Notes: generated by a model from the letters alone, not told the origin. Counted from the stretch's first letter, positions 10,737 to 30,098 are shown. The stretch is DNA of 64,000 nt from Steroidobacteraceae bacterium (GCA_025451275.1 JANWKR010000040.1:118-64117), one strand, 5' to 3'. Numbers and translations are program-made.

Positions 10737-10749
10737 GGGCGCGGGCGCC

Positions 10750-13422: not shown

Positions 13423-13564
13423 TTAAGAACTCCCCAGCGTGCCCGTGTGCAACTCCTTCGGGGAGCCATTCCTCGAGTTTCGAATTATCGTTCGCGGACG
13501 TGATCGAGTCGAAGGCTGATACAGCGTTTTATAAGTATAATTTAGTGTAACAAAAACAATCAAT

Positions 13565-13604: not shown

Positions 13605-13670
13605 AGCCTGGGAGGCGCTATCGTCTGGTGCTCTATACTCTGTGGACCGAATACCGCCGTGGTTGACAGC

Positions 13671-14390: not shown

Positions 14391-14408
14391 GACGATTTGC
14401 GGGGCCAC

Positions 14409-14603
14409 TCAGTTCGCCGGCTTTGTCTCCCGCTTCATGTGCAGCTTCGCCCGGCGCCCACACTGTTCGCACGGAATCCACGCGACCAGGTGTTGACCCT
14501 CCGCCATGTCGTCCGGATTGAACTCATAATCCGGCTGGTCGATGCGCCCGCAGACTTCGCACTCGATCCAGGCGACTAGCGCTGCGGGGCGGCCGGCGTC
14601 CAT
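14409..14603 (-). CDS. Small Zn-ribbon-like protein with an internal duplication
   Basis: 64 aa with two CxxC knuckles in a repeated context (LVAWIECEVCGR ... LVAWIPCEQCGR) and a basic tail. Convergent with Crp paralogue 2. Function unknown. Confidence 0.45.
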   Translation of the reverse strand: MDAGRPAALVAWIECEVCGRIDQPDYEFNPDDMAEGQHLVAWIPCEQCGRRAKLHMKRETKPAN

Positions 14604-15344
14604 CGCGTCGTGTTACCGGCCATCGGATTTGTTGACACGAGAGTAGCGCCAGAAAATCCGCCCTCCCAAGCCGCCGCCGCCGAGCGCCGTACAGGCAAGT
14701 TCTGCGACGCCGCCAGGGAGCTTGGCCAACCGTAGAGGCCAAGCGATAACAGAGCGAATAGAAGGACCGGGCCGACCCAATACCTGGGCGGCATCGGTTT
14801 GTTAGGGCTCTGTGTATCCACCGCGACAGCCTAATACCGCCGCGTGTCGCATGGCTAGGAACATCAAAGAATTGCGCTGATGATGCGGGCGACCGCTGCA
14901 AACAAGATAACGAGGAAGCCAGTTAAACTGATCCAGTCGTCGGTGGCTTTCTCCTTGTAGATCTGCGCCGCTGGCCTTAGTTCTTCGTCGACGATCTCGT
15001 TGCCGCTCTGCAGGACCTTCGCCAGCAGGACGAGCCTAGCTTGGTTGGCGCGCTCTGCCTCCGCGAAATTAACATCGAGTCAAACGCGATGATGCGGGTG
15101 TTTGCGTAGATCGCCATCAGGCCCCTAATGAGACTTGCTGAAATCTGCCTTCGCCAACGGTCAGGACCAGCAGGGCGATAGCAACCTCGACTAAGGTCCA
15201 GACTAGGTGCCAGATCAGACGCCAGCCACGCGCGGTCCACGTTGTGTTTGCTCGTGAGTGGGTACGCGGCCGTTGAGCGCCTTCACCTGCCTGAATGTAC
15301 GGAACCGCACAGAAGGCCGGCAGGAGCAAGCGTAACCTATTGCT

Positions 15345-16472
15345 ATGCTGCACGAATTCCTTACGACCAACCGAGATGCCCTGGTCGAACGGTGTCGACT
15401 CAAGGTCGCGAAGCGGTTGGCACCCAAGGTTACCGATGCGGAGCTGACCCATGGAATACCGGCTTTCCTGGATCAGGTGATTAAGACGCTCCAGGTCGAG
15501 CAGACCGCCGAGCCCCTACGCAGCCGCAGGGTCTCAGGGCCGGCCGGAGGCGCGCCGGCCATGTCCGAGATAGGCACGACTGCGGCGCTGCATGGGCGAG
15601 AGTTATCCATGCAGGGGTTCACAGTTGAACAGGTCGTTCACGACTACGGCGATCTCTGTCAGGCGATAACTGATCTCGCATGTGAACACAGCGCTCCGAT
15701 TGAGATAGACGAGTTTCGAACTCTCAACCGCTGTCTCGACAATGGAATCGCCGATGCAGTGACCGAATACGCGTTTCAGCGGAATTCCCTGGTGGAGGAC
15801 ATCGGTGTAAAGGCCTTGAACGAAAGGCTAGGATTTCTCGCGCACGAACTGAGAAACCATCTCCACGTAGCGACTCTTGCCGTTATTGCCATCCGAGCAG
15901 GCAACGTCGGGGCGGCCGGCGCAACGGGTGCGGTGCTGGACCGCTCCCTGATCGGGATGCGGAGTCTCATAGATCGCTCCCTGGCCGATGTGCGAGTAGC
16001 AGCGGGAATGCTTCCTCGACGCCAACTGGTGTCGCTCGCCGATTTCGTTTCCGACGTAAAGATATCGGCCTCACTCGAGTCAAACTCGCGAGGATGCGTC
16101 TTTACAGCCGGTGCGGTTGACTCGGAGCTTGCGCTCGATGTTGACCGGGAAATGCTCCTTTCCGCAGTTGGAAACCTGCTGCAAAATGGTTTTAAGTTCA
16201 CACTGCCGAACACGGAAGTTCTATTGAGCGCCTACGCCGTCGGCGATCGAATCCGGATTGAGGTCGAAGACCATTGTGGCGGCCTTCCACTTGGTATGGA
16301 CAACCTATTTCCGTCGTTCAAGCAGCGCGGCAAGGACAGGTCCGGCCTTGGACTCGGCCTCTCAATCTGTCGACGCAGCGTTGAGGCGAACAATGGAGTG
16401 CTCAGGGTCCGCGACATCGCGGGCTCAGGCTGTGTTTTCACGATTGACCTGCCCCGGCACACACTGCCGTAA
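15345..16472 (+). CDS. Cytoplasmic sensor histidine kinase (RsbRD-N-like N-terminal domain + HisKA + HATPase_c), orphan
   Basis: 375 aa with no TM segment. H-box FLAHELRNHL, N-box NLLQNGFKF, G-boxes DHCGGLP and GLGLGLSI. The N-terminus MLHEFLTTNRDALVERCRLKV resembles RsbRD_N-type helical sensors. No response regulator in the window. Confidence 0.85.
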   Translation: MLHEFLTTNRDALVERCRLKVAKRLAPKVTDAELTHGIPAFLDQVIKTLQVEQTAEPLRSRRVSGPAGGAPAMSEIGTTAALHGRELSMQGFTVEQVVHDYGDLCQAITDLACEHSAPIEIDEFRTLNRCLDNGIADAVTEYAFQRNSLVEDIGVKALNERLGFLAHELRNHLHVATLAVIAIRAGNVGAAGATGAVLDRSLIGMRSLIDRSLADVRVAAGMLPRRQLVSLADFVSDVKISASLESNSRGCVFTAGAVDSELALDVDREMLLSAVGNLLQNGFKFTLPNTEVLLSAYAVGDRIRIEVEDHCGGLPLGMDNLFPSFKQRGKDRSGLGLGLSICRRSVEANNGVLRVRDIAGSGCVFTIDLPRHTLP

Positions 16473-16879
16473 CACCTCGAAGTCCCGGACGTGGATGCTA
16501 GGCGCGCTCGGTTGTTAACCGACCTGTCACGAGCGTCCTAGCCTATCGTCGCTCCCGCATCGGCGTCACGGCAGCCGACGGACGCAGCTCCGGGCCCGCC
16601 TCCTCGCTCTATCGCGCAGGGTTAGCCGTTTTGAATAGTCGATGCGCGGAGCCGCATCTAGGACGGCTTGCCGGTCGCAGGAAAACCTAGCCCAAGCCTC
16701 AGCCGGCGCGGCTGACCACCCGTGCCGCTGTCGTCGATGTATACGTGGAGCATGTGGGCGCTCTATGGTCTTGGCCGTCCCAGGGCCCAGTTCACGGTTC
16801 TGACGGACTTGCTAATGGACTTGCTCAGGCCCAGCCTGACGCGTTTGCGGCCAAATTCACCTGTAAGTCATTGAGTTAA

Positions 16880-16955
16880 TGGTGCCGGGAATAGGATTCG
16901 AACCTACGACCCGCGCATTACGAATGCGCTGCTCTACCAGCTGAGCTATCCCGGC
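16880..16955 (-). tRNA. tRNA-Thr (anticodon CGU)
   Basis: 76 nt: GCCGGGA-TA-GCTC-AGCTGGTA-GAGC-A-GCGCA-TTCGTAA-TGCGC-GGGTC-GTAGG-TTCGAAT-CCTAT-TCCCGGC-A-CCA. This folds by hand into a full cloverleaf, with anticodon-loop positions 34-36 = CGT. Confidence 0.92.
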
Positions 16956-16979
16956 GCGCGCCATGGAAGGCGCGGCATT

Positions 16980-17393
16980 CTACATTTTTTTGCGCAGGCG
17001 GATCACGAGGTCGATGCCGGCGACCTCGGTGCCCGGAGGCGGCGGCGGCAGGCGGCTGAACTCGACGGACGGCACCGGTACGTCGATGAGCGCGCCGCTC
17101 TCGAGGTCGTGGAAGTGGTAGTGCGGGTCAACGTTGGAGTCGAACCAGGCACGCGAGCCGTCGACCGACAGCTGCCGTATCAGCCCGTGGGCCGCGAACA
17201 GGTTGAGCGTGTTGTAGACCGTCGCCTTCGAGATCCGCGCCCCGGCTGAACGTAGCTGCGCCAGGATCTGTTCGGCGGACAGGTGCTGCGGGGCGGACAA
17301 CAGGAGCGAGGCGATGCGCACGCGCTGCGCGGTCGGACGGATGCCGCAATGGGCCAGTCGCTGCTCGCAGGCTGCCGGGGCTTGGGGCTCCAT
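16980..17393 (-). CDS. Fur-family transcriptional regulator (Cys-poor, Irr-like?)
   Basis: 137 aa from ATG 17393 (MEPQAPAACEQRLAHCGIRPTAQRVRIASLLL...). Winged-helix region ISKATVYNTLNLFAAHGLI and a His cluster DPHYHFHD. No C-terminal CxxC pairs. The rest of the 307-aa track ORF is an out-of-frame extension running into emrB. Confidence 0.75.
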   Translation of the reverse strand: MEPQAPAACEQRLAHCGIRPTAQRVRIASLLLSAPQHLSAEQILAQLRSAGARISKATVYNTLNLFAAHGLIRQLSVDGSRAWFDSNVDPHYHFHDLESGALIDVPVPSVEFSRLPPPPPGTEVAGIDLVIRLRKKM

Positions 17394-17452
17394 GATCGCG
17401 GCATTATAGGGGCAAGTCGCCGCGGATTCCGCTCTTTTGGGGTCCGGCGCGG

Positions 17453-19006
17453 TCAGTGCGCCGCGAGCGGACTCCCGCCTCCCTTGCCCTTCTTGACCAG
17501 CAGCAGCAGCGGCAGCATGGCCAGGAACAGGATGCCGAGAGTCTTGAAGTCGTCCAGATACGACAGGAGCGTCGCCTGCTGGACGGTCTGCGCGTAGATG
17601 CCGGCGAGGGTCGCCGGCGCATCCGGTGCGGCGCCGAGCATGCTGCCGACCTGGTGGGCGTAGTCGGGGTAGGCCGGATTGAGCGGCTGCAGCTGCTCGA
17701 CCAGCCGGCTCTGGTGGAACTGTGCGCGGCGCGTCAGCACCGTAGCGGCGAAGGAGATGCCGATGCTGCCGCCGAAGTTGCGCGCCAGGTTGATCAGCGC
17801 CGAGGCGTTGTTGGTCTTGTCCGGCGGCACGCCGCGAAATGCCATGGCGTTGATCGGCACGAACAGGAAGGGCAGCGCGATGGATTGCAGGATGCGCAGC
17901 CACATCAGGCGGCTGAACGAGACGCCGAGATAGACGTTGGTCATGAGCAGCAGGCTCGCGCCGCCGATGACGAGTCCGATGCCGGTCAGGATCCTAAGGT
18001 CCACCTTGTTGATCGAGCGCCCGACCAGGGGCAGGAGCAGGATCGTGGCGATGCCGCCCGGGGTGAGCACCATGCCGGCGTCCACCGCGCGATACCCCAT
18101 GAGCTGCTGCGTGTAGGCGGGCAGCAGGAAGGTGCTGCCGAACAGCATGAAGCCGAGCATCAGCATCAGCACGAAGGTCACCGCAAAGTCGGGATTCTTC
18201 ATCAGACGCAGATCGACCATCGGGTGCTCGTGGCTGAGCTCGCGCCAGATGAGCAGCGCGAACGCCGTCGCGGAGGCGATCGCGAGCGTCGCGATCAGCG
18301 GGGAGGAGAACCAGTCCGCGTCCTGGCCGCGGTCCAGCACCACCTGCAGGCAGCCGAGGCTCAGCGCCACGAAGCCGAAACCCCACCAGTCGACGGAGAA
18401 GGAGCTGGCACCGCGCTGCGGGCCGCTGTCCTTGATGAGCGGGATCACCAGCATGATGAGCGCCGCGCCGACCGGCACATTGATGAGGAAGATCCAGCGC
18501 CAGTCGTAGTTGTCGGTCAGCCAGCCGCCGAGGGTCGGGCCGACGGTCGGTGCCACCACCGCGGCAATGCCGTAGACGGCCGACGCCATGCCGCGCTTTT
18601 CTGCGGGGAAACTATCCGCGAGGATCGCCTGGCCGACCGGCTGCAGTCCGCCGCCGGCCGCGCCCTGCAGCGCGCGCAGCACGATGAGGGTCGGCAGGTT
18701 CGGGGCGAGGCCGCACAGGAGCGAGGCCAGCGTGAAGCCGGCGATGCAGGTGAGGAACAGGCGCTTGCGCCCGAAGGTGTTGGCGAGCCAGCCCGAGATC
18801 GGCATCACCACGGCATTGGTGACCAGGTAGCTGGTGAGCACCCACGTGGACTCGTTCTGGCTCGAGGAGAGCGCACCGGCGATATGCGGCAGCGCGACGT
18901 TGGCGATGGAGATGTCCATGATCTCCATGAACGCCGCCAGCGCCACCACCGGGGCGATCACCCACGGGATGTCGCTGGCGGCGGCGCGCGCCACCGCCGT
19001 GTTCAC
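17453..19006 (-). CDS. emrB: MFS (DHA2, 14-TM) multidrug efflux permease, EmrB/QacA type
   Basis: 517 aa. Motifs IANVALPHIAGAL and GWLANTFGRKRLF (MFS motif A). Many TM helices. 4-nt start/stop overlap with the upstream HlyD-type adaptor. Confidence 0.88.
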   Translation of the reverse strand: MNTAVARAAASDIPWVIAPVVALAAFMEIMDISIANVALPHIAGALSSSQNESTWVLTSYLVTNAVVMPISGWLANTFGRKRLFLTCIAGFTLASLLCGLAPNLPTLIVLRALQGAAGGGLQPVGQAILADSFPAEKRGMASAVYGIAAVVAPTVGPTLGGWLTDNYDWRWIFLINVPVGAALIMLVIPLIKDSGPQRGASSFSVDWWGFGFVALSLGCLQVVLDRGQDADWFSSPLIATLAIASATAFALLIWRELSHEHPMVDLRLMKNPDFAVTFVLMLMLGFMLFGSTFLLPAYTQQLMGYRAVDAGMVLTPGGIATILLLPLVGRSINKVDLRILTGIGLVIGGASLLLMTNVYLGVSFSRLMWLRILQSIALPFLFVPINAMAFRGVPPDKTNNASALINLARNFGGSIGISFAATVLTRRAQFHQSRLVEQLQPLNPAYPDYAHQVGSMLGAAPDAPATLAGIYAQTVQQATLLSYLDDFKTLGILFLAMLPLLLLVKKGKGGGSPLAAH

Positions 19007-20232
19007 AGGTGGCCTCGCTTGCCGTGATGGGTGTCCTGCTGCGCCAGCGCCTGCCCGTCCGCGCCGTCAGGATGGCCGAGGTTGGCCGCGACGATGCTGC
19101 TGATCGCCTGATCGGCGCCGGCTTCCTGGCTCTCGTAGACGTCGGTGTTGAGAACTGCCGGCCAGGCCGGCTGCTTGGACAGCGCCGCGCCGGACTGGTC
19201 GTGCACGTCGACCTCGACGTCGGTCGACAGGCCGAGGAACAGCGGGTGACGCTCGAGCTCGGCCGGGTCGAGACCGATGCGCACCGGCAGGCGCTGCACG
19301 ATCTTGATCCAGTTGCCCGAGGCGTTCTGCGCCGGCAGCACGGCGAGCGCGCTGCCGGTGCCGGCGGTGAGTCCCAGCACCTTGCCGTGGAAGTGCACCT
19401 TGGAGCCGTACATGTCGGCGGACACGTTCGCCGGCTGGCCGATGCGCAGCCCCGCGAGCTGGTTTTCCTTGAAGTTGGCATCGATCCACATGGATTCCAC
19501 CGGCAGGATGGCAAGCATCTCGGTCGCGGGGCTCACCTGCTGGCCGAGCTGCACGGCGCGGCGCACCACGTAGCCGGAGACCGGTGCCACGACGCGCGTG
19601 CGGGCTGCGGCCAGCCAGGCCGCGCGCAGCTGCGCCTCCGCCTGCAGCACGCGTGGGTGCGTGTCGGGAGTGGTGCCGGCGATCGCGGCGCGCGTGGCCG
19701 CCAGGGACGCCTGCGCCTGCGCCAACCCCGCCTGCGCCGCGTGCACCGCGTTCTGCTCGTGCTGCAGGGTCTCCTGCGAGACGCCGTGCAGGGCGATCAG
19801 CGGCCGGTCGCGCTCGACGTCCTGGTTCGCCTGGGCCACCTGCACGTGCTGGGTCTGCAGCGCGGCCGCGTTGCGCTGCGCCTCGGCGAACAGCTGCGCC
19901 ACGTCACGCACCGTCTCGGCGAGACTGGCCTTGGCCTGGGCGAGCGCCACCTGCGTATCGCGCGGATCGAGCTGCACCAGCACCTGGCCGCGGTGCACGA
20001 ACTGCGTCTCGTCGGTGCTGATCGCCGTCACGGTGCCGGCCACCTGCGGCGTGAGCCGCACCAGGTTGCCGTCGACGTACGCATCGTCGGTGCCGACGCG
20101 AAAGCGCGCCACGGTCAGGTAGTACAGTGCCCAGCCGGCGATCGCGAGCAGCGCCACGGCGCCGATGATGATCAGCGGACGGCGGTTGCGCGGCTTGGCC
20201 GGCGCCGGCTGCTGCGGGGTCTGCTCACTCAT
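19003..20232 (-). CDS. emrA: HlyD-family efflux adaptor, EmrA type
   Basis: 409 aa. N-terminal TM (PLIIIGAVALLAIAGWALYYL), TDDAYVDGNLVRLTPQVAGTV, a long coiled coil, and C-terminal NWIKIVQRLPVRI. Overlaps the OMF stop by 8 nt. Confidence 0.88.
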   Translation of the reverse strand: MSEQTPQQPAPAKPRNRRPLIIIGAVALLAIAGWALYYLTVARFRVGTDDAYVDGNLVRLTPQVAGTVTAISTDETQFVHRGQVLVQLDPRDTQVALAQAKASLAETVRDVAQLFAEAQRNAAALQTQHVQVAQANQDVERDRPLIALHGVSQETLQHEQNAVHAAQAGLAQAQASLAATRAAIAGTTPDTHPRVLQAEAQLRAAWLAAARTRVVAPVSGYVVRRAVQLGQQVSPATEMLAILPVESMWIDANFKENQLAGLRIGQPANVSADMYGSKVHFHGKVLGLTAGTGSALAVLPAQNASGNWIKIVQRLPVRIGLDPAELERHPLFLGLSTDVEVDVHDQSGAALSKQPAWPAVLNTDVYESQEAGADQAISSIVAANLGHPDGADGQALAQQDTHHGKRGHL

Positions 20233-21730
20233 GCTTGTCTCCTGAGGTGACCGCGGCGAGGGCGGCCGGGTCGTGGTTGGAATTCCACCAGCCGCCGCCG
20301 AGGGCGCGGAACAGCGTCGCGGTGTCGGTGAAGCGCTGCACGTCGGCCTGGACCTGGGTGAGCGCGGCCTGCTGGTACTGCTGCTCGGCGGTGAGCACCT
20401 GCAGCTCGGTGTACTTGCCGGCGCGATACTGGGCCAGCGCCAGGTCGCGGTCGTCGCGGGCCGCGCTCAGCGCGCTGCGGTGCGCGAGGTAGCTCTCGTC
20501 GTCGTGGCCGAGCGCCTGCAGGGCGTTGGCGACTTCGACGAAGGCGCCGAGGGCGGTGGCGCGGTAGTTGGCGAGCGCCTGCCGGTAGCGCTCCTCGGCC
20601 TCGTGCTCGCGCGCGCTGAGCGCGCCGCCGTGGAACAGCGGCGCCGTGACGTTGATACCCGCCGACCAGATCCCGCCCGGGCGGGTGAAGAAATCCGAGA
20701 GCGCGCTGGTCTGCTGCGCGTACTGCGCGGAAATGCCGAACGAGGGCAGGCGCGCGGCTGCCGCGACCCCGACCGCGGCGGAGGCCTGGTGCAGGGAGTC
20801 CTCGGCCGCCAGCACGTCGGGTCGCTGGCGCACCAGCGTCGAGGGCAGCGACAGGGGCAGCTGCGCGGGCAGCGTGAAGTCGCGTAGGGTGAGGGCGGGG
20901 GGTACGAACTCGTCGGGCGACTGGCCGCTGAGCTGCGCCAGCGCATTGCGGTAGGCGTCGCGCTGCTGATGCAGTGCCGGCAGCGTCGCGCGCAGGTTCT
21001 CGAGCTGCGTCTGCGCCAAGAGCGTGTCGCTGCGGGTGATCTTGCCGGCATTCTCCAGGGCCTGCGTAAGGTCGAACTGCGACTGCAGCTCATCCACGAG
21101 CGCCTGGGTGACCTCGATCTGCGCGCCGCTGGCGGCATAGTCGAAGGCCGTCATCACCACCTGGTCGACGAGCGTGACGTAGGTATTCAGCACCTGGTCG
21201 CGGGCCACGCCGGTGGCGGCCTGCTGCGATTCGATGGCGCGGCGCGTACCCCCGAAGACGTCGAGGTTGTAGGCGAGTGCGGGGCCGAGCTCGAAGCGGT
21301 TGCCGGTCTGATCGATGGCGTTCACCGGTCCGTACAGGAAGCTGCCGTTGATGTGGGCGCGGCCGACCTGGCCGGTGGCGTCGAACTGCGGCAGGGCCGC
21401 CCCCGCGACCGCCTGCAGCTCGTACTGCGCGGCCTTCAGGCCGTGACGGGCGGCCTCGAGGCTCGGGTTGCGCTCGAGGGCCGCGCGCACCAGCTGCTCG
21501 AGCTGCTCGGAGCCGTAGAGGCGATACCAGTCCGCGGCGACATCGCCGCCGTAGCTGATGCTGCGCGTGGCGCTCGGGGCCGGCGCGGCGTGGGCATAGC
21601 CCCCGGCAGGGGCTGCGGGACGGCTGAAGTCGGGGCCCAGGGTGCAGCCGCCGATGAGCAGGCTGACGGTGAACAGTCCGATCGCGAGCAGGCTGAGCGT
21701 GAGCGGGGGCAGGATGCGGCGCACGTACAT
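20225..21730 (-). CDS. Efflux outer-membrane factor lipoprotein (NodT/OprM family)
   Basis: 501 aa. Lipobox LLIGGC, two OEP-type repeats, RPDVLAAE motif, and C-terminal ALGGGW. Confidence 0.88.
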   Translation of the reverse strand: MYVRRILPPLTLSLLAIGLFTVSLLIGGCTLGPDFSRPAAPAGGYAHAAPAPSATRSISYGGDVAADWYRLYGSEQLEQLVRAALERNPSLEAARHGLKAAQYELQAVAGAALPQFDATGQVGRAHINGSFLYGPVNAIDQTGNRFELGPALAYNLDVFGGTRRAIESQQAATGVARDQVLNTYVTLVDQVVMTAFDYAASGAQIEVTQALVDELQSQFDLTQALENAGKITRSDTLLAQTQLENLRATLPALHQQRDAYRNALAQLSGQSPDEFVPPALTLRDFTLPAQLPLSLPSTLVRQRPDVLAAEDSLHQASAAVGVAAAARLPSFGISAQYAQQTSALSDFFTRPGGIWSAGINVTAPLFHGGALSAREHEAEERYRQALANYRATALGAFVEVANALQALGHDDESYLAHRSALSAARDDRDLALAQYRAGKYTELQVLTAEQQYQQAALTQVQADVQRFTDTATLFRALGGGWWNSNHDPAALAAVTSGDKHE

Positions 21731-21731
21731 G

Positions 21732-22280
21732 TCAGGTCTCCGGGTTGGCGGTGCGGCGCGCCCGCGGGCGCGCGGCCTTCACCAGCCCCGCCAGCGAGGG
21801 CAGGGCGGTGCTGGCGCCGGCCGCCTGCTGCAGGTGTCCGAGCAGGCGCTGCATGAGGGCGATGAGCGTGTCGACCTCCGCCTCCGAGAACGGCTCGACC
21901 AGCTCGTTGAGCAGCTCGACCACCAGGCGCTTGCCCTCGAGCGCGTGGCGGCGCCCCTCGGCGGTGATCGCGATCTCGACCGCGCGGCGGTCCTTGCGGC
22001 TGCGCTCGCGGCGCGCCAGGCCGCGCCGCTCGAGCTCGTCGACCACGCGGGTGAGGGCGCCCATGTCGTGACCGAGGTCCTCGGACAGGCGCGTCGCCGA
22101 GACGTGCTCGTGCTGTGCGAGCCCGATCAGGGCCAGCCACTGGGTGAAGGAGATCGGCAGCCTCTGGAAGCGCTTCTCCGCCACCTGGGTCATGAGCACG
22201 CCGCAGCGCTTCATGAGAAAGCCCACGCTGCGGCTCGGCTCGAGTGTCTCCTGGGAATAGTAGGGTTTGGGCTTACGCAT
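21732..22280 (-). CDS. MarR-family transcriptional regulator
   Basis: About 182 aa from ATG 22280 (MRKPKPYYSQETLEPSRSVGFLMKRCG...). Winged HTH region SATRLSEDLGHDMGALTRVVDELERRGLARRERSRKDRR. Its stop lies 1 nt before the OMF start. The track ORF opens at an upstream TTG. Confidence 0.85.
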   Translation of the reverse strand: MRKPKPYYSQETLEPSRSVGFLMKRCGVLMTQVAEKRFQRLPISFTQWLALIGLAQHEHVSATRLSEDLGHDMGALTRVVDELERRGLARRERSRKDRRAVEIAITAEGRRHALEGKRLVVELLNELVEPFSEAEVDTLIALMQRLLGHLQQAAGASTALPSLAGLVKAARPRARRTANPET

Positions 22281-22312
22281 GATTGCTCCGGCTAAATTTG
22301 CCGAGACTATAT

Positions 22313-22324
22313 TTGCCAAGGCAA
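22313..22324. promoter_or_regulatory. Palindrome TTGCC-AA-GGCAA upstream of marR (candidate MarR operator)
   Basis: Lies 33-44 nt upstream of ATG 22280 in an AT-richer patch. ATTTGCC is also directly repeated at 22296 and 22311. Confidence 0.35.
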
Positions 22325-22422
22325 GTAAAGTCAAGCGCGCCCTGGAACCGCGCGCCGGAGTTCATCAGGTGCACCCGCGCGGTGGGGTGCCTTAAGCTCG
22401 TGCGCGCCGTAGGGGAGGACGC

Positions 22423-23034
22423 ATGAACTGGCAGCTGTTCGCGGGTTTTCTTTTGATGACGCTGGTGCTGATTCTGGCGCCCGGTCCGATCGTGACGCTG
22501 GTGATCTCGACCGGGGCCACGCGCGGAGTGCGCGCGGCGCTCGTCACCGTGGCGGGTACCTCAACCGGCAACGCGTTGCTCCTGACCGCCATCGCGTTCG
22601 GCCTGGACTGGGTGCTGCGGCACGCGGCGTACCTGTTCGAGGTGCTGCGCTGGGCGGGCGTCGCTTACCTCATCTTGCTCGGCGTGCGTGCCTGGCGCAG
22701 CGCCGGTCACACGCAGCCGGCCGTGAGCGGCAACCAGGTGCACTTCTGGCGCGGCCTGACCGTGGCGCTCACCAACCCCAAGACACTGGCGTTCTTTACC
22801 GCGTTCCTGCCGCAGTTCGTCGACCCCACGCTGCCCGTGGCGCGCCAGCTGGCCGTGATGTGCGGGGTGTCCGTGGTGCTGGCCTCGCTCAGCGATTCCT
22901 GCTGGGCGGTGCTCGCGGGGCTGGGGCGCACCTGGTTCATGCGGCCGGCACGCGCCCGGCTGCTCGGGCGTGCCTCCGCCCTGACCCTGATCGGCGGCGG
23001 CGTGTGGCTGTCGCTGGCGCGCCGCCCGGCCTGA
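22423..23034 (+). CDS. LysE/RhtB-family amino-acid (or small-metabolite) exporter
   Basis: 203 aa, about 6 TM. N-terminus FLLMTLVLILAPGPIVTLVIS and LTNPKTLAFFTAFLPQFV are typical of the family. Confidence 0.85.
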   Translation: MNWQLFAGFLLMTLVLILAPGPIVTLVISTGATRGVRAALVTVAGTSTGNALLLTAIAFGLDWVLRHAAYLFEVLRWAGVAYLILLGVRAWRSAGHTQPAVSGNQVHFWRGLTVALTNPKTLAFFTAFLPQFVDPTLPVARQLAVMCGVSVVLASLSDSCWAVLAGLGRTWFMRPARARLLGRASALTLIGGGVWLSLARRPA

Positions 23035-23062: not shown

Positions 23063-25018
23063 CTAGGCGAGCTTGCTCTGCAGGTGCTGGGCGAGCTCGG
23101 CGATAGTCGGGAAGTCGAACAGCTCGGTCAGATCCACCCGGCCGGGATATTCCTTGTCGATCTGCTCGTGGATCTCGATGAGCTTCAGTGAGCTGGCGCC
23201 GATCTCGAACAGGTTGTCGTGCACGCCGACGCGCTTGCCCTCGAGGGCGGTGTCGCAGATGTTCTTGAGCTTCTCCTCGATCGCGGTGCGCGAGCCGGGC
23301 TCGGGTGCACGCTGCGCGGCGCGCAGCGCCGCGAGCTCTGCGAGCTCGGCGGCAAACTCGCCGTCGACGTAGCCGTCCTCCAGCAGGTGACGCTGGATCT
23401 TGCCGCTGGTGGTCTTGGGGATGCGCTTCACCGGCACGACGTCCGCGACCTCGAGCCCGGACTGCTCGTTCACGAGGCGCGCCACCTGCGCGGCGAGCGG
23501 CAGGAACTCCTCCATGGCGCCGCGGTGCAGTACGAACACCACCAGCTGCTCGGCGTCGCCGCCGCGCGGCCGCACGCCCGCGGCGACCACCTTGCCGAGC
23601 TCGAGACCCGGAGCGCGCTGCGCGATGGCCTCGAGGTCGTGCGGGTAGTAGTTCTGGCCGTTGACGAAAATGATCTCCTTGGCGCGCCCGGAGACGAACA
23701 GGTCACCGGCGTGCATCAGCCCCAGGTCGCCGGTGCGCAGCCAGCCGTCGGCGGTGAGTGCGGCGGCGTTGGCCGCCGGGTCCTCGTAGTAGCCGCGCGT
23801 GACGTTGTCACCGCGGATGTGCACGTGCCCGATGCGCTCGGCAGGCAGTTCGCGGTCCGTCTCGTCCGCGATGCGCACCCGGCAGTAGGGGATGGCCCGT
23901 CCCTCGGACACGAGGCGCACCGCGTCGCGGTCCGCCGCGTCGACGAGCTCCACCGCGCTGCCGGCGCTCATGCGGTGGCGGTTGAGCGCGATGGTCTTGA
24001 GGGGCGCGCCCAGCGGCGGAAAGCTCACGGCGAGCGAGGCCTCGGCGAGCCCATACACCGGGTACATGGCGTTGCGGTTGAGCCGCGCCGGCGCGAGCCG
24101 CGTCAGGAATTCGTCGCACAGCTCCACCGAGATCGGCTCGGCACCGTTGAAGATGAGGCGCACGGCCGACAGATCCAGTGCCTCGACCGGACGCTCGCCG
24201 AGCACCTTGAGGTAGTGCTTGTAGCCGAAGTTGGGCGAGCACAGGATGCTGGCGCGGATGCGCGCGGCGAAGGTGAGCCACAGCAGCGGGCGGCGCACGA
24301 ACAGCTCGGTCGGCATCAGGTGCGCGTGCACGCGGTTGGCGAACATGATCAGGTGGAAGCCGATGAGGCCCATGTCGTGGGTCAGGGGCATCCACGACAG
24401 GCTCACGTCACGCTCGGAGAAGCCCGCCACCTCGGTGGCGCCGTAGCAGTTGGCGAGGATGTTGCGGTGCGTGAGCACCACGCCCTTCGGCTCGCTGGTC
24501 GAGCCGGAGGAGAACTGGATGAAGGCGGTGTCGTCGGGCGCGACGCGCTGCACTTCGCCGGCGCGCGAGATGTCGTCGAGGTCATCGACCAGGAACACGC
24601 GCCGGCGCAGGCCCTCGTAGACCTCGCTCTCGCCGGCCTGTGCGGCGAAGCTGCCGATGCGCTCGAGCGAGCGCCGCTCGGTGTACAGGTACGGCTTGCC
24701 GAGGCGGCGCGCGATGCGCAGCAGCTTGTGGCGATGCTCGTCGCTGATCCCGAGCGCCACCGGCACCGGCACGATGCCGCCGAGGATGGCGGCCCAGAAC
24801 ACGTCGATGAACTGCTCGTTGTTGTTCAGGAACAGGATCAGCTTGTCGCCGCGCCGCGCGCCGAGCTTCTGCAGGTGATGCAGGATGCCGAGCGCGCGCT
24901 CGTAGAGTTCGGCGAACGACACCTCGCGGCTGTCGTTCTCACCCTCGAGGTAGGTGAGGGCGCGCGGCGCGGAGCGGTTGCCGGTGATGACTTCCGTGAG
25001 GGTCGTGGCTTTGGACAT
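23063..25018 (-). CDS. Fatty acyl-AMP ligase (FAAL) fused to a C-terminal carrier-protein domain
   Basis: 651 aa. Adenylation cores FSSGSTSEPKGVVLTH, WLRTGDLG, and GRAKEIIFVNGQNYYPHDLE (FAAL-like). The C-terminal roughly 80 aa have a phosphopantetheine motif LFEIGASSLKLIEI. Confidence 0.85.
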   Translation of the reverse strand: MSKATTLTEVITGNRSAPRALTYLEGENDSREVSFAELYERALGILHHLQKLGARRGDKLILFLNNNEQFIDVFWAAILGGIVPVPVALGISDEHRHKLLRIARRLGKPYLYTERRSLERIGSFAAQAGESEVYEGLRRRVFLVDDLDDISRAGEVQRVAPDDTAFIQFSSGSTSEPKGVVLTHRNILANCYGATEVAGFSERDVSLSWMPLTHDMGLIGFHLIMFANRVHAHLMPTELFVRRPLLWLTFAARIRASILCSPNFGYKHYLKVLGERPVEALDLSAVRLIFNGAEPISVELCDEFLTRLAPARLNRNAMYPVYGLAEASLAVSFPPLGAPLKTIALNRHRMSAGSAVELVDAADRDAVRLVSEGRAIPYCRVRIADETDRELPAERIGHVHIRGDNVTRGYYEDPAANAAALTADGWLRTGDLGLMHAGDLFVSGRAKEIIFVNGQNYYPHDLEAIAQRAPGLELGKVVAAGVRPRGGDAEQLVVFVLHRGAMEEFLPLAAQVARLVNEQSGLEVADVVPVKRIPKTTSGKIQRHLLEDGYVDGEFAAELAELAALRAAQRAPEPGSRTAIEEKLKNICDTALEGKRVGVHDNLFEIGASSLKLIEIHEQIDKEYPGRVDLTELFDFPTIAELAQHLQSKLA

Positions 25019-26328
25019 CAGCGGCGTTCCAGCCTCATGTGCAGCGGATGGCGCGTGCGCAGGTTGATCTGCGCCTCGAGCTCGAGGGGTTGGTCGGGTA
25101 CGTAGGCGAGCCGGTAGCGGCGCGCCACCATGTACAGGTGCATGAGCATTTCGTAGAGCGCGAAGGTCTCGCCGATGCAGTGCCGCGGGCCGGCGGCAAA
25201 GGGCATGTAGGCGAAGCGCGGCCGTTCGGCCTCGTGCTCCGGGCCGAAGCGCTCCGGCCAGAACCGCTCGGGCTCCTTCCAGAAGGCCGGGTGCCGGTGC
25301 AGCAGGTACAGCGGCAGCAGCACGTTGGTCTTGGGCGGCACCGGGAAGCCTCCCAGCACGTCCGCCTCGATGGTGCGGCGCGACAGCAGCCAGCCGGGCG
25401 GGTACAGGCGCAGCGCCTCGTCGATCACCTGGCGCGTGTAGGTGAGTGCCTCCATCTGCTCCAGACCTGGGGCGGCCAGCGGCGCTGCGGCATCGAGCTC
25501 GGCGTGCAGGCGCGCCTCGGCCTCGGGGTGCTGCGACAGCAGGTACCAGGTCCAGTTGAGCCCGCTGGCGGTGGTCTCGTGGCCGGCCACGATGAGGGTC
25601 ATGACCTCGTCGATCAGCTCGCGCTCGCCCATGGGCTCGCCGGTCTCCTTGTCGCGCGCGCTCATCAGCATGGCGACGTAGTCGAAGTGCTCCTCGGGCT
25701 CGGCACGGCGCCGCGCGACCAGCCTGGCCACCAGCTTGGTGAGCTGGCGGAACTTGTAGGCGAACTGCAGATCACGCGACTGCTCCTTGGTCACCACCTC
25801 GAAGGGGTTGCCGCCGAGCTCGGCGCTCAGGCGGTCGAGATCGGTGCCGAAAATGGCGCGCAGCACGATGGTGAGGGTGAGCTCGCTCATCTCGTCGGTG
25901 AGATTGACCGACTCGCCGCGCCCGGCGAGGGTGTCCCAGCGCTCGAGGAAGCGCTCGTTGGCCCGGGCGATCACCCCGGCAAAGCCGGTGATGACGCGGC
26001 GGTGGAAGTAGGGCTGCATCATGTAGCGCTGGCGCTTCCACAGCTCCCCCTCGCTGGTCATGATGCCCTTGCCGAGCAGGATCTTGACGCGGTCGAGGCC
26101 GACGCCCTTGGTGTAGTTGCGGTGGTTGGAGACCAGCACCCGCTTCACGTCATCCGGGTGGTGGATGACATAGGTATAAGATCCGCGCGCGGGCACGAAC
26201 ACCCGGTAGGTGTCGCCATGGCGGGCGAACAACTCGATCATGCGCTCCAGGGAATCGTCCGTGGAGCCGATGTCGAACTGCTGCTCGGCCTCCGGGGGCC
26301 GGGGATTCGCGGATGCGGCGGCGGTCAT
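25018..26328 (-). CDS. Cytochrome P450 (CYP4/CYP102-like fatty-acid-hydroxylase type)
   Basis: 436 aa. I-helix LIVAGHETTASGL, EXXR (EALR in IDEALRLYPP), PERF (WPERFGPE) and heme loop FAAGPRHCIGETFA. Its stop overlaps the FAAL start (TGATG). Confidence 0.9.
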   Translation of the reverse strand: MTAAASANPRPPEAEQQFDIGSTDDSLERMIELFARHGDTYRVFVPARGSYTYVIHHPDDVKRVLVSNHRNYTKGVGLDRVKILLGKGIMTSEGELWKRQRYMMQPYFHRRVITGFAGVIARANERFLERWDTLAGRGESVNLTDEMSELTLTIVLRAIFGTDLDRLSAELGGNPFEVVTKEQSRDLQFAYKFRQLTKLVARLVARRRAEPEEHFDYVAMLMSARDKETGEPMGERELIDEVMTLIVAGHETTASGLNWTWYLLSQHPEAEARLHAELDAAAPLAAPGLEQMEALTYTRQVIDEALRLYPPGWLLSRRTIEADVLGGFPVPPKTNVLLPLYLLHRHPAFWKEPERFWPERFGPEHEAERPRFAYMPFAAGPRHCIGETFALYEMLMHLYMVARRYRLAYVPDQPLELEAQINLRTRHPLHMRLERR

Positions 26329-26463
26329 GCAAGCTGTTGAAAGCCAAACCTTAATCTTATATCACACGTGCGCCGCCGACTCGCCCCGGCGCCCGGCCGC
26401 GCGCGGCGCGGGCATCGCGGCCGCGCGCCTTGCGTCCCGGCCTGGCTGGAGGTTCCTCACCGC

Positions 26464-27210
26464 ATGAGTGGCGACGACGAAGGGCGGCTGCGCAACACGC
26501 TGTACCGCACCACCACGCGCTCGAGCCGGCGCATGACCCCGGCGCGCCGGCTGCTGTATCGCATCGCCGTGCCGGTCGCGCTGGCGATCATCCGCGCCTG
26601 GTGGTTCACCTGCCGGGTGGTGCGCGTCGAGGGCGTCGAGCACCTGGACGCCGCGCTCGCGCGCGCCCCCTCGCTGGTGCCGTGCTACTGGCACCAGCAC
26701 CAGCTGTACTGCGGCAAGTTCCTGGTCGAGCAGCGCGAGCGCGGCCTCGTGCCCGGCTGGCTCATCAGTCCCTCGGTGGACGGCGAGCTCGGCGCCATGA
26801 TGGTGCGGCGCTTCGGCGGGGCGGTGATCCGCGGTTCCTCCACGCACACCGGTGCGCGCGCGCTGCGCGACTACTACCAGGCGCTGGTGAAGGACAACGT
26901 CTCGCCGGTGATCACGCCCGACGGGCCGCGCGGCCCGCGCTTCAAGTTCAAGCCCGGCGCGCTGCTCCTGTCGCAGATGTCCGGGCGGCCGATCCTGCCC
27001 ATGGCCTACGCCGCCTCGCGCGCGCGGCTGATCAAGTGGGACAAGTTCGTGATCCCGCTGCCGGGGGCGCGCATCGCGATCGCCATCGGGCCGCCGGTCT
27101 ATGCCCCGCGCGTGACCGACGCCGCCGGCCTCGAGCGGCTGCAGCAGGAGATGGAGGGCGAGCTCAAGCGCCTGTACGGCGTCGCCCGTGCGGCGTTGCA
27201 GGGGCCCTGA
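26464..27210 (+). CDS. DUF374 / LPLAT-superfamily acyltransferase-like protein
   Basis: About 248 aa from ATG 26464. Motifs CYWHQHQL, SPSVDGELGAMMVRRFGGAVIRGSS, ITPDGPRGPRFKFKPGALLLS. Divergent from the P450-FAAL pair. Confidence 0.7.
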   Translation: MSGDDEGRLRNTLYRTTTRSSRRMTPARRLLYRIAVPVALAIIRAWWFTCRVVRVEGVEHLDAALARAPSLVPCYWHQHQLYCGKFLVEQRERGLVPGWLISPSVDGELGAMMVRRFGGAVIRGSSTHTGARALRDYYQALVKDNVSPVITPDGPRGPRFKFKPGALLLSQMSGRPILPMAYAASRARLIKWDKFVIPLPGARIAIAIGPPVYAPRVTDAAGLERLQQEMEGELKRLYGVARAALQGP

Positions 27211-27419
27211 AGCAGGGCGTCCCCGGGGATTCTGTTAAGTCTCGCAAAGCTCTTCCGGAACATGGTCTTAGCTTGTGTTCCTGATCAAGTGTGCGAGAAT
27301 CCCCTGCAACCACTTGGAAAATAGCGGCGGCGAATCGTCCAGTCCGTGACGGTGTGATACGTAACGCCGGTGGTTTTTGAATACGCTGCGGCCAAGGGTT
27401 AGTGGGAGACTCGGGGCAC

Positions 27420-30098
27420 ATGACGACTCCGCCGCCGGAAAAGCCGGCGGAATTTACCGCTTCGGACATTCTTTCGGCTGACGCCTGGACCGGCCGGACT
27501 CCCAAACCCGTGCTCGGCATCGACGTCGTCTGCACCAAGATCGCGGTCGACTTCCAGAACATGCGCCGCGACTCCATGGACGAGTGCGTGCGGCGCAATC
27601 TCGAGCTGCTGCGCGGGGCTACCGGCTGCGACTGCACCTTCCTGGCCGTGCTCGACCCCGAGGATTCGACCTTCGCCGAGGTGCGCCTGGCGCGCGGCGC
27701 CTTCGCCCAGTGCCGCCCGGAAGGGCTGCAGGGCGTGGGCATGGAATCGTTCCCGTGGCTGAAGAGCCGCAACGAGCATCTGCGCCTCTCGGAGCTGCGC
27801 GACAGCGCCACGCCGCGCAAGGAGCAGGCGACGGAAGCCGCACGCCTGGCGGACCTGCAGATCGGCTCGGCGCTGTTCGTGGCGCTGCGCGTGCAGGACA
27901 AGCCCGCCGGGTTCCTGGCCCTCGCCCACACCCTGCCGCGCGGCGCCTGGGACGTGAACCTGCAGCTGCTGATGAAGCTGGTGGGCACCAGCCTCGCCAC
28001 CGGACTTGAGCGCATCCGCACCGAGACGCGCCTCGCCAAGCTCGAGGAGCGCACCAATCTGTTCCAGGCCGCCGCCAACGACGGCATGTGGGACTTCGAC
28101 GTCGAGAACAACGAGGTCTACTTCTCGCCGCGCTGGAAGGCCATGCTCGGCTACGGCGACGACGACATGCGCGGCTCGCCCGACTGGCGCAGCCTCGTGC
28201 ACCCGGACGATCTGACGCGCGTGCAGGCGGCGATCCGCGACCACGTCGCCGGCAAGACCCCGATCTTCGAGAGCACGCACCGCATGCGGCACCGCAACGG
28301 CGAGTGGCGCTGGGTCATCAGCCGCGCCACGGCGCGCGTCGACAAGCACGGGCGGCTGCTGCGCCTGGTGGGTGTCGAGCTCGATATCACCGAGCGCAAG
28401 CTGTACGAGGAGGCGCTGTTCCGCGAGAAGGAGAGCGCCCAGATCACCCTGCAGTCGATCGGCGACGGCGTCATCACGACCGATGCCAATTCCACGATCG
28501 ACTACATCAACCCGGTCGCCGAGGAGCTGACCGGCTGGCGGCTCGAGGACGCCATGGGGCGGCCGGTGGAGGAGATCTTCCGCGCCTTCCACGAGGAGAC
28601 CTGCGAGCCGCTCGAGAATCCGCTGACCGTGTCGATCCGCCGCATCCGCCCCATCAAGTCGGTGCGCCCGATGCTGCTCATCCGCCGCGACGGCAACGAG
28701 CTGTACGTCGAGAGCACCGCCGCCCCGATCCGCGACGGCTCCGGCCACGTGGCCGGCGGCGTGCTGGTGTTCCATGACGTGTCCGAGTCGCGCGAGCTCA
28801 ACCGCCGCCTCTCCTACCACGCCAGCCACGACCTGCTCACCGGGCTGGTCAACCGGCGCGAGTTCGAGAGCCGCCTGGAGCGGGCGCTGAAGAGCGCCAA
28901 GGCGCGCGAGGCGTCCTATGCGCTCGCCTACCTCGACATCGACCAGTTCAAGATCGTCAACGACAGCTGTGGCCACGGCGCCGGCGACGCACTGCTCGGC
29001 CAGGTCGGTGCGCTGCTCAAGTCCAAGGTGCGCTGGCGCGACACGCTCTCGCGCCTCGGCGGCGATGAGTTCGGCATCCTGCTCGAAAGCTGCTCGCTGG
29101 ATGAGGCGATGCGCACCGCCGAGACGCTGCGCGAGAGCGTGCGCAACTTCCGCTTCACCTGGGAAGACCGCGTGTTCCGCCTCGGCGCCAGCATCGGCGT
29201 GGTACCGATCACGCCCGACAACGAGGACGTGGCCGGCATCCTCTCGGCCGCCGACTCGGCCTGCGCCGCCGCCAAGGAGTCCGGCCGCAACCGCGTGCAC
29301 TCCTTCGCCGAGAACGACATCGAGCTCATGCGCCGCCGCAAGGAGATGCAGTGGGCGGCGCGCATCAACGCGGCGCTGGAAGAGGGGCGCTTCGAGCTGT
29401 TCCGCATGGCGATCCAGCCGCTGCAGCGGGTCGAGGTCGGCCAGCATTACGAGCTGCTGCTGCGCCTCAAGGACGAGACCGGGCGGATCGTCGCCCCCAA
29501 CGACTTCATCGCCGCGGCCGAGCGCTACGGCATCACCCCGGCGATCGACCGCTGGGTGATCGAGAACGCGTTCCGCTGGCTGGTGTCCGATTCCGACGAG
29601 CGCGAGAAGCTCGCGCAGTGCTCGATCAACCTCTCCGGGCAGAGCCTCGGCGATGACAAGTTCCTGCCGTTCGTCATCGAGCAGCTGCGCCACAGCGGCC
29701 TCGACGCGACCAAGATCTGCTTCGAGATCACCGAGACGGCCGCGGTGCAGAGCTACTCGCAGGCCAACCGCTTCATCCAGGCGCTGAAGGAGCAGGGCTG
29801 CAAGTTCGCGCTCGATGACTTCGGCACCGGCCTGTCCTCGTTCGGCTACCTCAAGCACTTCCCGGTCGACTTCCTCAAGATCGACGGCAGCTTCGTGCGC
29901 GAGATCCTCCGCGACCCGATCGACCGCGAGATGGTGCGCTCGATCAACGAGATCGGGCACCTGACCGGCAAGCAGACCATCGCGGAGTTCGCCGAGAACG
30001 CCGAGATCATCCAGATGCTCACCAGCCTCGGCGTCGACTACGCGCAGGGCTACGGCGTCGCCCAGCCGCAGCGCGTGGTGAAGTCAGCGGTTGCCTGA
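27420..30098 (+). CDS. GAF-PAS-PAS-GGDEF-EAL signalling protein (c-di-GMP turnover)
   Basis: About 892 aa. GGDEF intact (SRLGGDEFGILL) with an RxxD I-site (RWRD) 5 residues upstream. EAL domain with YELLLRL, QCSINLSG, FEITETA, ALDDFGTG, KIDGSF, EFAEN, QGY. No TM segment. GTG 27402 is an alternative start. Confidence 0.9.
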   Translation: MTTPPPEKPAEFTASDILSADAWTGRTPKPVLGIDVVCTKIAVDFQNMRRDSMDECVRRNLELLRGATGCDCTFLAVLDPEDSTFAEVRLARGAFAQCRPEGLQGVGMESFPWLKSRNEHLRLSELRDSATPRKEQATEAARLADLQIGSALFVALRVQDKPAGFLALAHTLPRGAWDVNLQLLMKLVGTSLATGLERIRTETRLAKLEERTNLFQAAANDGMWDFDVENNEVYFSPRWKAMLGYGDDDMRGSPDWRSLVHPDDLTRVQAAIRDHVAGKTPIFESTHRMRHRNGEWRWVISRATARVDKHGRLLRLVGVELDITERKLYEEALFREKESAQITLQSIGDGVITTDANSTIDYINPVAEELTGWRLEDAMGRPVEEIFRAFHEETCEPLENPLTVSIRRIRPIKSVRPMLLIRRDGNELYVESTAAPIRDGSGHVAGGVLVFHDVSESRELNRRLSYHASHDLLTGLVNRREFESRLERALKSAKAREASYALAYLDIDQFKIVNDSCGHGAGDALLGQVGALLKSKVRWRDTLSRLGGDEFGILLESCSLDEAMRTAETLRESVRNFRFTWEDRVFRLGASIGVVPITPDNEDVAGILSAADSACAAAKESGRNRVHSFAENDIELMRRRKEMQWAARINAALEEGRFELFRMAIQPLQRVEVGQHYELLLRLKDETGRIVAPNDFIAAAERYGITPAIDRWVIENAFRWLVSDSDEREKLAQCSINLSGQSLGDDKFLPFVIEQLRHSGLDATKICFEITETAAVQSYSQANRFIQALKEQGCKFALDDFGTGLSSFGYLKHFPVDFLKIDGSFVREILRDPIDREMVRSINEIGHLTGKQTIAEFAENAEIIQMLTSLGVDYAQGYGVAQPQRVVKSAVA

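Follow-up and report, generated by a model that had tools for sequence, protein, structure and literature searches.

The locus described herein lies within a 64 kb stretch of DNA (the window; ~70 % GC) from a Steroidobacteraceae bacterium (GCA_025451275.1, JANWKR010000040.1:118-64117). It comprises a cytochrome P450 gene coupled to a gene for a fatty acyl-AMP ligase that is fused to its own carrier domain (FAAL-CP), with a DUF374 acyltransferase gene arranged divergently to both. An initial annotation, made from the sequence alone, had pictured these genes as an orphan and minimal lipid-tailoring cluster, a description that did not survive comparison with related loci. To judge from that comparison, the trio is a partly decayed local copy of a conserved module of four to five genes, which also includes a phosphopantetheinyl transferase (PPTase) and an LpxL-like acyltransferase. 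The features of the window that bear on this module are the following.

23063-25018, minus strand: FAAL-carrier protein fusion, 651 aa (Pfam AMP-binding and PP-binding)
25018-26328, minus strand: cytochrome P450, 436 aa (Pfam p450, E 3e-75)
26327-26467, plus strand: PPTase relic, an open reading frame (ORF) of 46 codons (PPTase-profile match and DNA alignment)
26464-27210, plus strand: DUF374/LpxJ-family acyltransferase, 248 aa (PF04028)
6711-7646, minus strand: LpxL/LpxM-family acyltransferase (PF03279, Lip_A_acyltrans)

The ORFs for FAAL-CP, the P450 and the DUF374 protein, as well as that of a neighbouring LysE-family gene, all display a GC content at third codon positions of 0.92–0.95, and can thus be taken as coding frames. 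The P450 with its AGHETT signature, as first annotated, is borne out by the Pfam match listed above and by its translation, which harbours a VAGHETT I-helix, EALR (ExxR), PERF and the heme loop FAAGPRHCIGETFA; FAAGPRHCIG within this loop conforms to the FxxGxRxCxG pattern, and the AGxxTT, ExxR and PERF patterns are likewise present. The TGA of this gene and the ATG of FAAL-CP share base 25018, generating the TGATG overlap with a 651 aa ligase that had been described from the outset. With regard to family, the earlier label of 'CYP4/CYP102-like' holds for the broad class only. The nearest solved structures are CYP97A3 (E 2e-66), 7wzl and CYP97C1, followed by CYP170A1, CYP4B1 (8e-44), CYP3A and CYP102 (~1e-39), and when all curated NCBIfam models were scored the protein reached no family cutoff. 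It belongs to the same broad class as CYP4 and CYP102, and lies outside of those families.

Within the ligase, Pfam places the AMP-binding domain at residues 20–411 (E 3e-54) and the PP-binding domain at residues 592–646 (E 4e-11), the latter including LFEIGASSL, such that the in-cis carrier domain of the initial annotation is confirmed. The carrier serine is residue 610, within GASSL, and is invariant in 110/110 relatives. Each of the adenylate-forming motifs is found (A3 SSGSTxxPKG, A5 YGLAEA, A7 TGD, A8 GRxKE and A10 PKTxSGK), and the A3–A10 core motifs are 65–100 % conserved per position across the same 110 relatives. The top NCBIfam model, 'fatty acyl-AMP ligase' PRK09192, returns 374.6 bits, which is below its curated cutoff of 600, indicating that FAAL-CP represents a divergent FAAL subfamily. 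The hallmark of FAALs is an insertion between A5 and the hinge, which blocks the conformation required for coenzyme A (CoA) ligation. The residues in question, 339–385, align essentially gap-free to EcFAAL (3pbk) and LpFAAL (3kxw); McyG is gapped in this area, and alignments to acyl-CoA ligases begin only at around residue 364–375. On the strength of these alignments the ligase is of the FAAL type, with the FAAL-specific insertion in place. A search of 1.8 billion representatives revealed 30–40 % identity to the N-terminal lipo-initiation modules of giant non-ribosomal peptide synthetase/polyketide synthase (NRPS/PKS) enzymes, and 44–53 % identity to stand-alone proteins of ~650 aa. The closest homologues, with 83–96 % identity, come from Steroidobacteraceae metagenome-assembled genomes (MAGs).

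The DUF374 gene starts at ATG 26464, is preceded by GGAGG, and lies divergently 135 nt from the P450 ATG at 26328, as had been noted previously. Its product matches PF04028 with an E-value of 1.7e-19 (69.6 bits versus a cutoff of 26.8; the query ran from 26461, in frame and one codon before the ATG). The initial annotation had described it as a DUF374/LPLAT-type acyltransferase. DUF374 is not a family without known function: it is the LpxJ family of lipid A 3′-secondary late acyltransferases, a known non-orthologous replacement of LpxM (PMC6148475), for which W60, H61, D86, D132, W172 and D173 are the essential residues of the Rickettsia typhi enzyme (PMC6148475). Local R. typhi sequence was decoded from the mutagenesis primers of the same study (FAFWHNML, VTPDGPKGP and SWDKLIIPIPFG; PMC6148475), and is counted as covering four of the six essential positions (W60/H61, D132 and W172/D173). 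The window protein has counterparts to these segments in CYWHQHQL (YWHQ), ITPDGPRGP and KWDKFVIPLPG (KWDK), and H84 of R. typhi LpxJ, a non-essential residue, is not conserved. For D86 the counterpart is presumably SVDGE, which we take to be the DGE block of the family. All six LpxJ-essential residues would appear to be kept, D86 by way of this assumed block.

To place the locus amongst its relatives, genomes were scanned with FAAL-CP, yielding 80 species-level loci, and two further scans, seeded with distant stand-alone FAAL-CP homologues and with an Alcaligenaceae copy, respectively, extended the set to other taxa. Linkage to FAAL-CP was counted by profile searches across 114 non-redundant loci (the window and the first two scans), using hidden Markov model envelope coordinates as positions; the denominators 107 and 83 include only loci with sufficient flank. 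A reverse scan, which started from aligned, distant P450 orthologues, gave 77 P450-anchored loci new to the set, 74 of which have sufficient downstream sequence. A lack of co-conservation had been named beforehand as grounds for abandoning the proposed partnership of P450 and FAAL-CP; what was found is that the pair stays together from whichever gene it is approached. In 87/107 loci the P450 gene stops no more than a few bases from where FAAL-CP begins, usually with overlapping stop and start codons, and FAAL-CP lies directly downstream in 71/74 P450-anchored loci, with one more having a tandem P450 duplicate before FAAL-CP. The remaining two exceptions are second P450 copies, one of them inside an aryl-polyene-like cluster. 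A radical-SAM/SPASM enzyme occupies the same slot before FAAL-CP in 4/107 loci, and no oxidoreductase is found there in 16/107. As for the acyltransferases, DUF374 is positioned at most 3.3 kb upstream of FAAL-CP in 77/94 loci, and at least one lipid A-type acyltransferase is present in 77/83 loci with adequate flank (10/12 outside of the Steroidobacteraceae). Tandem P450 duplication before FAAL-CP was observed in L061/L238 (1854-4170), which derive from one peat-soil (palsa) gammaproteobacterial MAG.

The P450 to FAAL-CP arrangement spans Gammaproteobacteria, Betaproteobacteria and Bacteroidota, with examples in Burkholderiales, Casimicrobiaceae, Alcaligenaceae, Thiotrichaceae, Chromatiaceae, Lysobacterales, Granulosicoccus, Thiohalophilus, Ectothiorhodospiraceae, Cyclobacteriaceae, Olivibacter and a Chitinophaga MAG; outside of the Steroidobacteraceae the P450 is 44–54 % identical. 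DUF374/LpxJ is the dominant acyltransferase in gammaproteobacterial loci, and is replaced by one to two copies of PF03279 in Burkholderiales, Cycloclasticus and Bacteroidota. In part of the Steroidobacteraceae, DUF374 is the first of a series of genes pointing the same way, the others being GT2, LAB_N (lipid A biosynthesis N-terminal domain) and PMT_2/ArnT-like (4147-7905 in L080; also L042, L055, L063, L070 and others), an order that is a trait of one subclade of the family. A GT9 heptosyltransferase occupies the usual DUF374 slot in L005 and L006. Conservation at the family level alone proves little, because a GGDEF-EAL gene and nadC are also syntenic within the Steroidobacteraceae. Synteny was nonetheless rejected as a full explanation, as distant loci retain the module amongst unrelated flanking genes, at GC contents of 0.38–0.72. 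In Olivibacter, for example, the PPTase, P450, FAAL-CP and an LpxL-like gene sit tightly together, with genes for a TonB receptor and peptide deformylase on either side.

FAAL-CP is also accompanied by acyltransferases where no P450 is present (e.g. L060, L076, L079, L080, L097, L134 and L166). As this pairing persists without the P450, FAAL-CP and acyltransferase can be viewed as the core, and the oxidoreductase as an exchangeable tailoring step that relies on the carrier pathway, given that the P450 is almost never found without FAAL-CP and that a radical-SAM enzyme can replace it. The P450 substrate would then be either the acyl-S-carrier or a product of the carrier pathway. The complete module would consist of an Sfp-type PPTase, the P450 to FAAL-CP pair, and an LpxJ- and/or LpxL-type acyltransferase. 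The radical-SAM/SPASM enzymes (395–457 aa, nearest to NirJ/AhbD-type models) lie at ~6550-8000 in each of L031, L035, L044 and L045. These loci represent four Steroidobacteraceae species, and in each the enzyme is translationally coupled to a FAAL-CP that is otherwise orthologous, with the downstream nadC synteny kept in L031. Neither DUF374 nor any other lipid A-type acyltransferase was found near the radical-SAM variants of these four loci.

A PPTase of the Sfp/HetI type is part of the module, with Pfam-backed examples in L081, L084, L093, L134 and L194. In many Steroidobacteraceae a 230 aa gene (c29) lies between DUF374 and the P450; Pfam and NCBIfam searches of c29 returned no match, and it was identified as a divergent PPTase by comparing its profile with that of Pfam-verified PPTases (hhalign 98.7 %, E 1e-16), with the motifs GKP, FSISHS, GLDxE and WxxREAxxK. 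The window retains a relic of this gene at 26327-26467, the first 12 of its 46 codons (MQAVESQTLILY) matching the N-terminus of the PPTase of relatives, and the module PPTase profile matches the window ORF 26210-26467 with an E-value of 1e-10. DNA alignment to L001 and L012 demonstrates that ~490 bp have been deleted in the window, as they have in L004 and L022, and the profile found no second match within the 64 kb. The statement that no PPTase lies nearby is thus accurate insofar as no intact copy exists in the window, although the absence arose through deletion; on these comparisons it is a secondary loss. With the local PPTase deleted, the carrier here must rely on one encoded elsewhere. 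The relic ATG overlaps that of the P450 head-to-head (CATG, 26326-26329), and its TGA overlaps the DUF374 ATG (ATGA, 26464-26467), leaving two divergent operons with no intergenic spacer. The deletion preserved the coupling to DUF374, and the 5′ portion that survives (26330-26365) has an unusually high AT content and may also serve as promoter sequence.

The second acyltransferase gene of the window, at 6711-7646, encodes a protein that matches Pfam Lip_A_acyltrans with an E-value of 1.3e-33, and in which the HX4D/E catalytic motif is present as HQCNWE, a motif conserved across the LpxL-like proteins of the module. It is 37–43 % identical to the acyltransferases abutting FAAL-CP in L081, L087 and L134. 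In loci without DUF374, a PF03279 gene of ~285 aa lies convergently and directly after FAAL-CP, frequently in two copies, and such a gene also follows FAAL-CP in many Steroidobacteraceae. The window gene is a displaced member of the module. It reaches at most 94.6 bits with the NCBIfam equivalog models, the cutoffs of which are 248 or more; falling so far under the NCBIfam cutoffs for LpxL, LpxM and LpxP, the LpxL-like proteins constitute a divergent clade to which function is not safely transferable. The window displays a lower GC content between 12000 and 17900 (0.60–0.64, versus ~0.70 elsewhere), a segment that includes Crp/Fnr-like regulators (12682-13422, minus strand, and 13566-14390, plus strand), a histidine-kinase-like ATPase (15345-16472, plus strand) and an Irr/Fur-family regulator, the latter being the C-terminal part of an ORF at 16980-17903 (minus strand). 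This segment may be an insertion that helped to part the LpxL-like gene from FAAL-CP. Adjoining the displaced gene, at 5481-6644 (plus strand), is a gene for a protein with a Big_7 Ig-like domain and two CHRD domains.

The remaining neighbours of the locus are as follows.

22423-23034, plus strand: LysE-family gene (Pfam), convergent with FAAL-CP across a gap of 28 nt
17453-22334, minus strand: MarR-OEP-HlyD-MFS efflux operon (Pfam)
27402-30098, plus strand: GAF-PAS-PAS-GGDEF-EAL protein (Pfam)

The convergent LysE gene had been correctly placed by the initial annotation, although its inclusion in the cluster was rejected, as it adjoins FAAL-CP in just 2/80 related loci (L014 and L040). The MarR-OEP-HlyD-MFS operon was likewise dismissed as a module part, being adjacent only in L067. 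The GAF-PAS-PAS-GGDEF-EAL protein is ~90–92 % identical across species, compared with 78–87 % for the adjacent FAAL-CP, P450 and DUF374 proteins, a conservation that is unusually strong for a cyclic di-GMP signalling protein.

With regard to function, the linkage points to an undescribed route by which an oxidised fatty acid would be placed onto an outer-membrane lipid. The reading preferred here, for which belief and doubt are evenly balanced, is that late acyltransferases acting on lipid A receive, from a dedicated and self-loading acyl carrier, a fatty acyl group that the P450 has oxidised. The FAAL domain would adenylate a free fatty acid, probably of long chain, and would load the acyl group onto the phosphopantetheine arm of the carrier domain to which it is fused, bypassing both CoA and the housekeeping acyl carrier protein (ACP). 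Oxidation by the co-translated P450, most likely a hydroxylation, would take place with the acyl group still on the carrier or only just transferred. The LpxJ- and LpxL-type acyltransferases would then pass it to lipid A or Kdo2-lipid IVA as a secondary (acyloxyacyl) chain. Priming of the carrier would fall to the dedicated Sfp-type PPTase in relatives, and to another PPTase here. Within this scheme we infer the fatty-acid substrate, the on-carrier oxidation and the lipid A acceptor, the observed elements being domain identities, motifs, gene order and coupling, and co-conservation. Lipid A had already been raised as a possible acceptor, and this suggestion gains from the membership of DUF374 in the LpxJ family, and from the occurrence of an LpxL/LpxM-family gene where DUF374 is absent, whilst staying an interpretation. 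Consistent with it, two non-homologous families, both chiefly known as lipid A late acyltransferases, substitute for one another beside the carrier. The LpxL-like HX4E motif and the carrier serine are intact, as the LpxJ residues appear to be, and LPS genes flank DUF374 in some loci.

A number of observations weigh against this reading, some at the locus itself and others in its relatives. No redox partner gene is found near the P450 in the window, the local PPTase has been lost, and the LpxL-like gene lies ~15 kb from FAAL-CP, with an RND pump, regulators and the efflux operon in between. The two top matches of the ligase in the PDB are the McyG loading didomain and a keto-acid-activating A domain; as both activate acids other than fatty acids, a fatty acid is the likely, rather than the settled, substrate of FAAL-CP. 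The acyltransferases of the module may, moreover, be either extra copies or the sole late acyltransferases of their genomes.

Other such observations concern the acceptor. PF03279 is not exclusive to lipid A, and also includes PatA, AlmG and the acyltransferases of aryl-polyene clusters. A P450 paralogue lies within an aryl-polyene-type cluster in L301 (663-7633; MMPL, LolA_3, Lip_A_acyltrans and an adenylating enzyme), and FAAL-CP abuts a xanthomonadin-like cluster in L060 (3370-10902) and L079 (~10000-17775). The latter cluster contains a flavin halogenase, MipA, GT2, ACP, an adenylating enzyme, Lip_A_acyltrans and LolA_3, along with an FkbO-type chorismatase that has a Pfam match in L079; the corresponding ORF in L060 has only a weak FAA_hydrolase match. 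These genes bear on an alternative in which the same carrier logic serves another acceptor, be it a lysophospholipid (Aas-like re-acylation), an aminolipid or an aryl-polyene-type outer-membrane lipid anchor. Such a role would also suit the placement of both LpxJ and LpxL/LpxM in the lysophospholipid acyltransferase (LPLAT) superfamily, as well as the distance of the LpxL-like proteins from the LpxL equivalog cutoffs. Set against this, late acylation of lipid A is the main characterised activity of both families, and it is lipid A acyltransferase families that swap across lineages despite their lack of homology. The six LpxJ-essential residues are, in addition, kept, and some loci have Arn-like and heptosyltransferase genes close by. 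Another acceptor is consequently seen as rather unlikely, and within this alternative Aas-like phospholipid repair was demoted to a minor rival because both acyltransferase families are of the lipid A type.

The carrier pathway also occurs in a different setting. In L194 (Panacagrimonas perspica DSM 26377; 5010-14522) the PPTase, P450 and FAAL-CP are joined by a second FAAL without a carrier, and then by an alpha-oxoamine-synthase-like aminotransferase and a Zn-dehydrogenase, the presence of which hints at a sphingoid-base-like product. A second FAAL also follows the pair in L298 (Variovorax sp. ZT4R33) and L243, and no lipid A-type acyltransferase was found in the available flanks of the Panacagrimonas/Variovorax variant. 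Since the carrier pathway can evidently feed different off-loading enzymes, a non-lipid A acceptor is plausible even for the acyltransferase-linked form. In another explanation, the product of the P450 and FAAL-CP would be a small lipid that is soluble or secreted, for instance a hydroxy or dicarboxylic acid, a signal, or the starter of a pathway with genes elsewhere, and the acyltransferases would be no more than unrelated housekeeping LPS genes that synteny keeps close. The second FAAL of this variant, the alpha-oxoamine-synthase-like enzyme of Panacagrimonas and the resemblance of FAAL-CP to NRPS/PKS lipo-initiation modules all fit such a product, and the GGDEF-EAL and nadC synteny indicates that part of the linkage in Steroidobacteraceae is plain gene order. 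The acyltransferase linkage, however, outlives all other flanks, across orders, phyla and the full range of GC content, even as the acyltransferase family switches. A dedicated PPTase is embedded between acyltransferase and P450, and no ketosynthase, condensation or thioesterase gene was found in the scanned flanks. This explanation is accordingly held to be very improbable indeed.

One further possibility retains lipid A as the acceptor but divides the labour differently. In an AlmEFG-like tertiary decoration, the P450 would hydroxylate a chain already on lipid A, and the cargo of FAAL-CP would be esterified onto the new hydroxyl by an acyltransferase. There are precedents for this in AlmG, a member of PF03279 by which a group borne on a carrier is added to a secondary acyl chain at its hydroxyl (PMC4278540), and in rhizobial lipid A, which has tertiary substituents on (omega-1)-hydroxy chains (PMC5613085); two acyltransferases per module, either LpxJ- plus LpxL-type or two of the LpxL type, are also the usual complement. 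The tight coupling and near-obligate co-occurrence of P450 and FAAL-CP nonetheless favour a shared substrate, and loci lacking the P450 keep FAAL-CP and acyltransferases, such that a P450-made hydroxyl is not universally required. Tertiary decoration is thus regarded as improbable.

A broader claim, advanced only tentatively and falling somewhat short of probable, is that late lipid A acylation independent of CoA and housekeeping ACP is widespread, with the self-loading carrier delivering scavenged fatty acids and a P450 (or, in some species, a radical-SAM enzyme) oxidising them. If correct, this would be the first P450-dependent modification of lipid A. The secondary chains so installed would be hydroxylated at the omega position or within the chain, or possibly dicarboxylic, and could carry further substituents or span the outer membrane like the very-long-chain acids of rhizobia. 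To our knowledge, all known late acylations use acyl-ACP from fatty-acid synthesis, or AcpXL, and LpxO, an Fe/2-oxoglutarate enzyme, is the only oxygenase known to act on lipid A chains. The module would therefore bring both a new input and a new chemistry to envelope biogenesis, and its use of either a P450 or a radical-SAM enzyme would offer a natural example of tailoring enzymes that can be swapped on a lipid carrier. Lipid A acylation governs outer-membrane permeability, stress tolerance and innate-immune recognition. Steroidobacteraceae are the source of most of the metagenome-derived homologues recovered, and the module is also found in Burkholderiales, sulfur-oxidising Gammaproteobacteria and Bacteroidota. 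Three apparent cultured isolates carry the P450/FAAL-CP pair (Olivibacter sp. CPCC 100613, Variovorax sp. ZT4R33 and Panacagrimonas perspica DSM 26377), which renders the idea directly testable. Full-text searches for FAAL or P450 in combination with lipid A, LpxL or late acyltransferases retrieved no literature on the module, and a 2024 review of aminolipids describes the use of FAALs in such lipid syntheses as unestablished.

What appears to be new, then, is a widely distributed variant of carrier-dependent lipid A acylation or decoration, several parts of which have counterparts in known systems. Escherichia coli Aas likewise combines an adenylate-forming activator of fatty acids, a carrier-bound acyl group and an LPLAT-type acyltransferase to bring free fatty acids into a membrane lipid. 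Aas, however, is one fused protein that borrows the housekeeping ACP and repairs lysophospholipid, with neither an oxidation step nor a PPTase. BioI (CYP107H1) and other carrier-dependent P450s act on carrier-tethered acyl or aminoacyl groups, and the linkage pattern described here suggests a similar, carrier-tethered mode. The window P450 is nevertheless distant from BioI, being nearer to CYP97, CYP170, CYP4, CYP3 and CYP102, and nothing points to C–C cleavage.

Characterised LpxJ enzymes probably use ordinary acyl-ACP, and we know of no previous report linking LpxJ to a FAAL-carrier and a P450. Their assays relied on expression in E. coli, with no dedicated carrier present (PMC6148475), and the window DUF374 protein shares both the Pfam family and the six essential residues with the LpxJ of Helicobacter, Campylobacter, Wolinella and Rickettsia (PMC6148475). 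The AlmE-AlmF-AlmG system of Vibrio cholerae similarly employs an adenylating enzyme, a phosphopantetheinylated carrier and a PF03279 transferase to lipid A (PMC4278540). AlmE, in contrast, is an amino-acid ligase of the DltA type, and the carrier on which it places glycine is a small protein of its own, where the ligase described here is of the FAAL type and fused to its carrier. The present module also includes a P450 and a PPTase. Rhizobial AcpXL/LpxXL, which puts the very-long-chain 27-OH-C28:0 on lipid A, also unites a dedicated, non-housekeeping carrier with an LpxL-family late acyltransferase in one cluster, and its chain is unusual and often hydroxylated (PMC5613085). That chain is built by FabF/FabZ paralogues, with the hydroxyl derived from the starter unit; neither a ketosynthase nor a dehydratase was seen amongst the Pfam-scanned neighbours of the window and related loci, a scan that took in part of the flanking ORFs. 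Unlike AcpXL, the carrier of the present module is part of one protein with a FAAL, by which an already complete acid would be loaded, oxidation would be carried out by a P450 or radical-SAM enzyme, and an LpxJ-type acyltransferase is often present.

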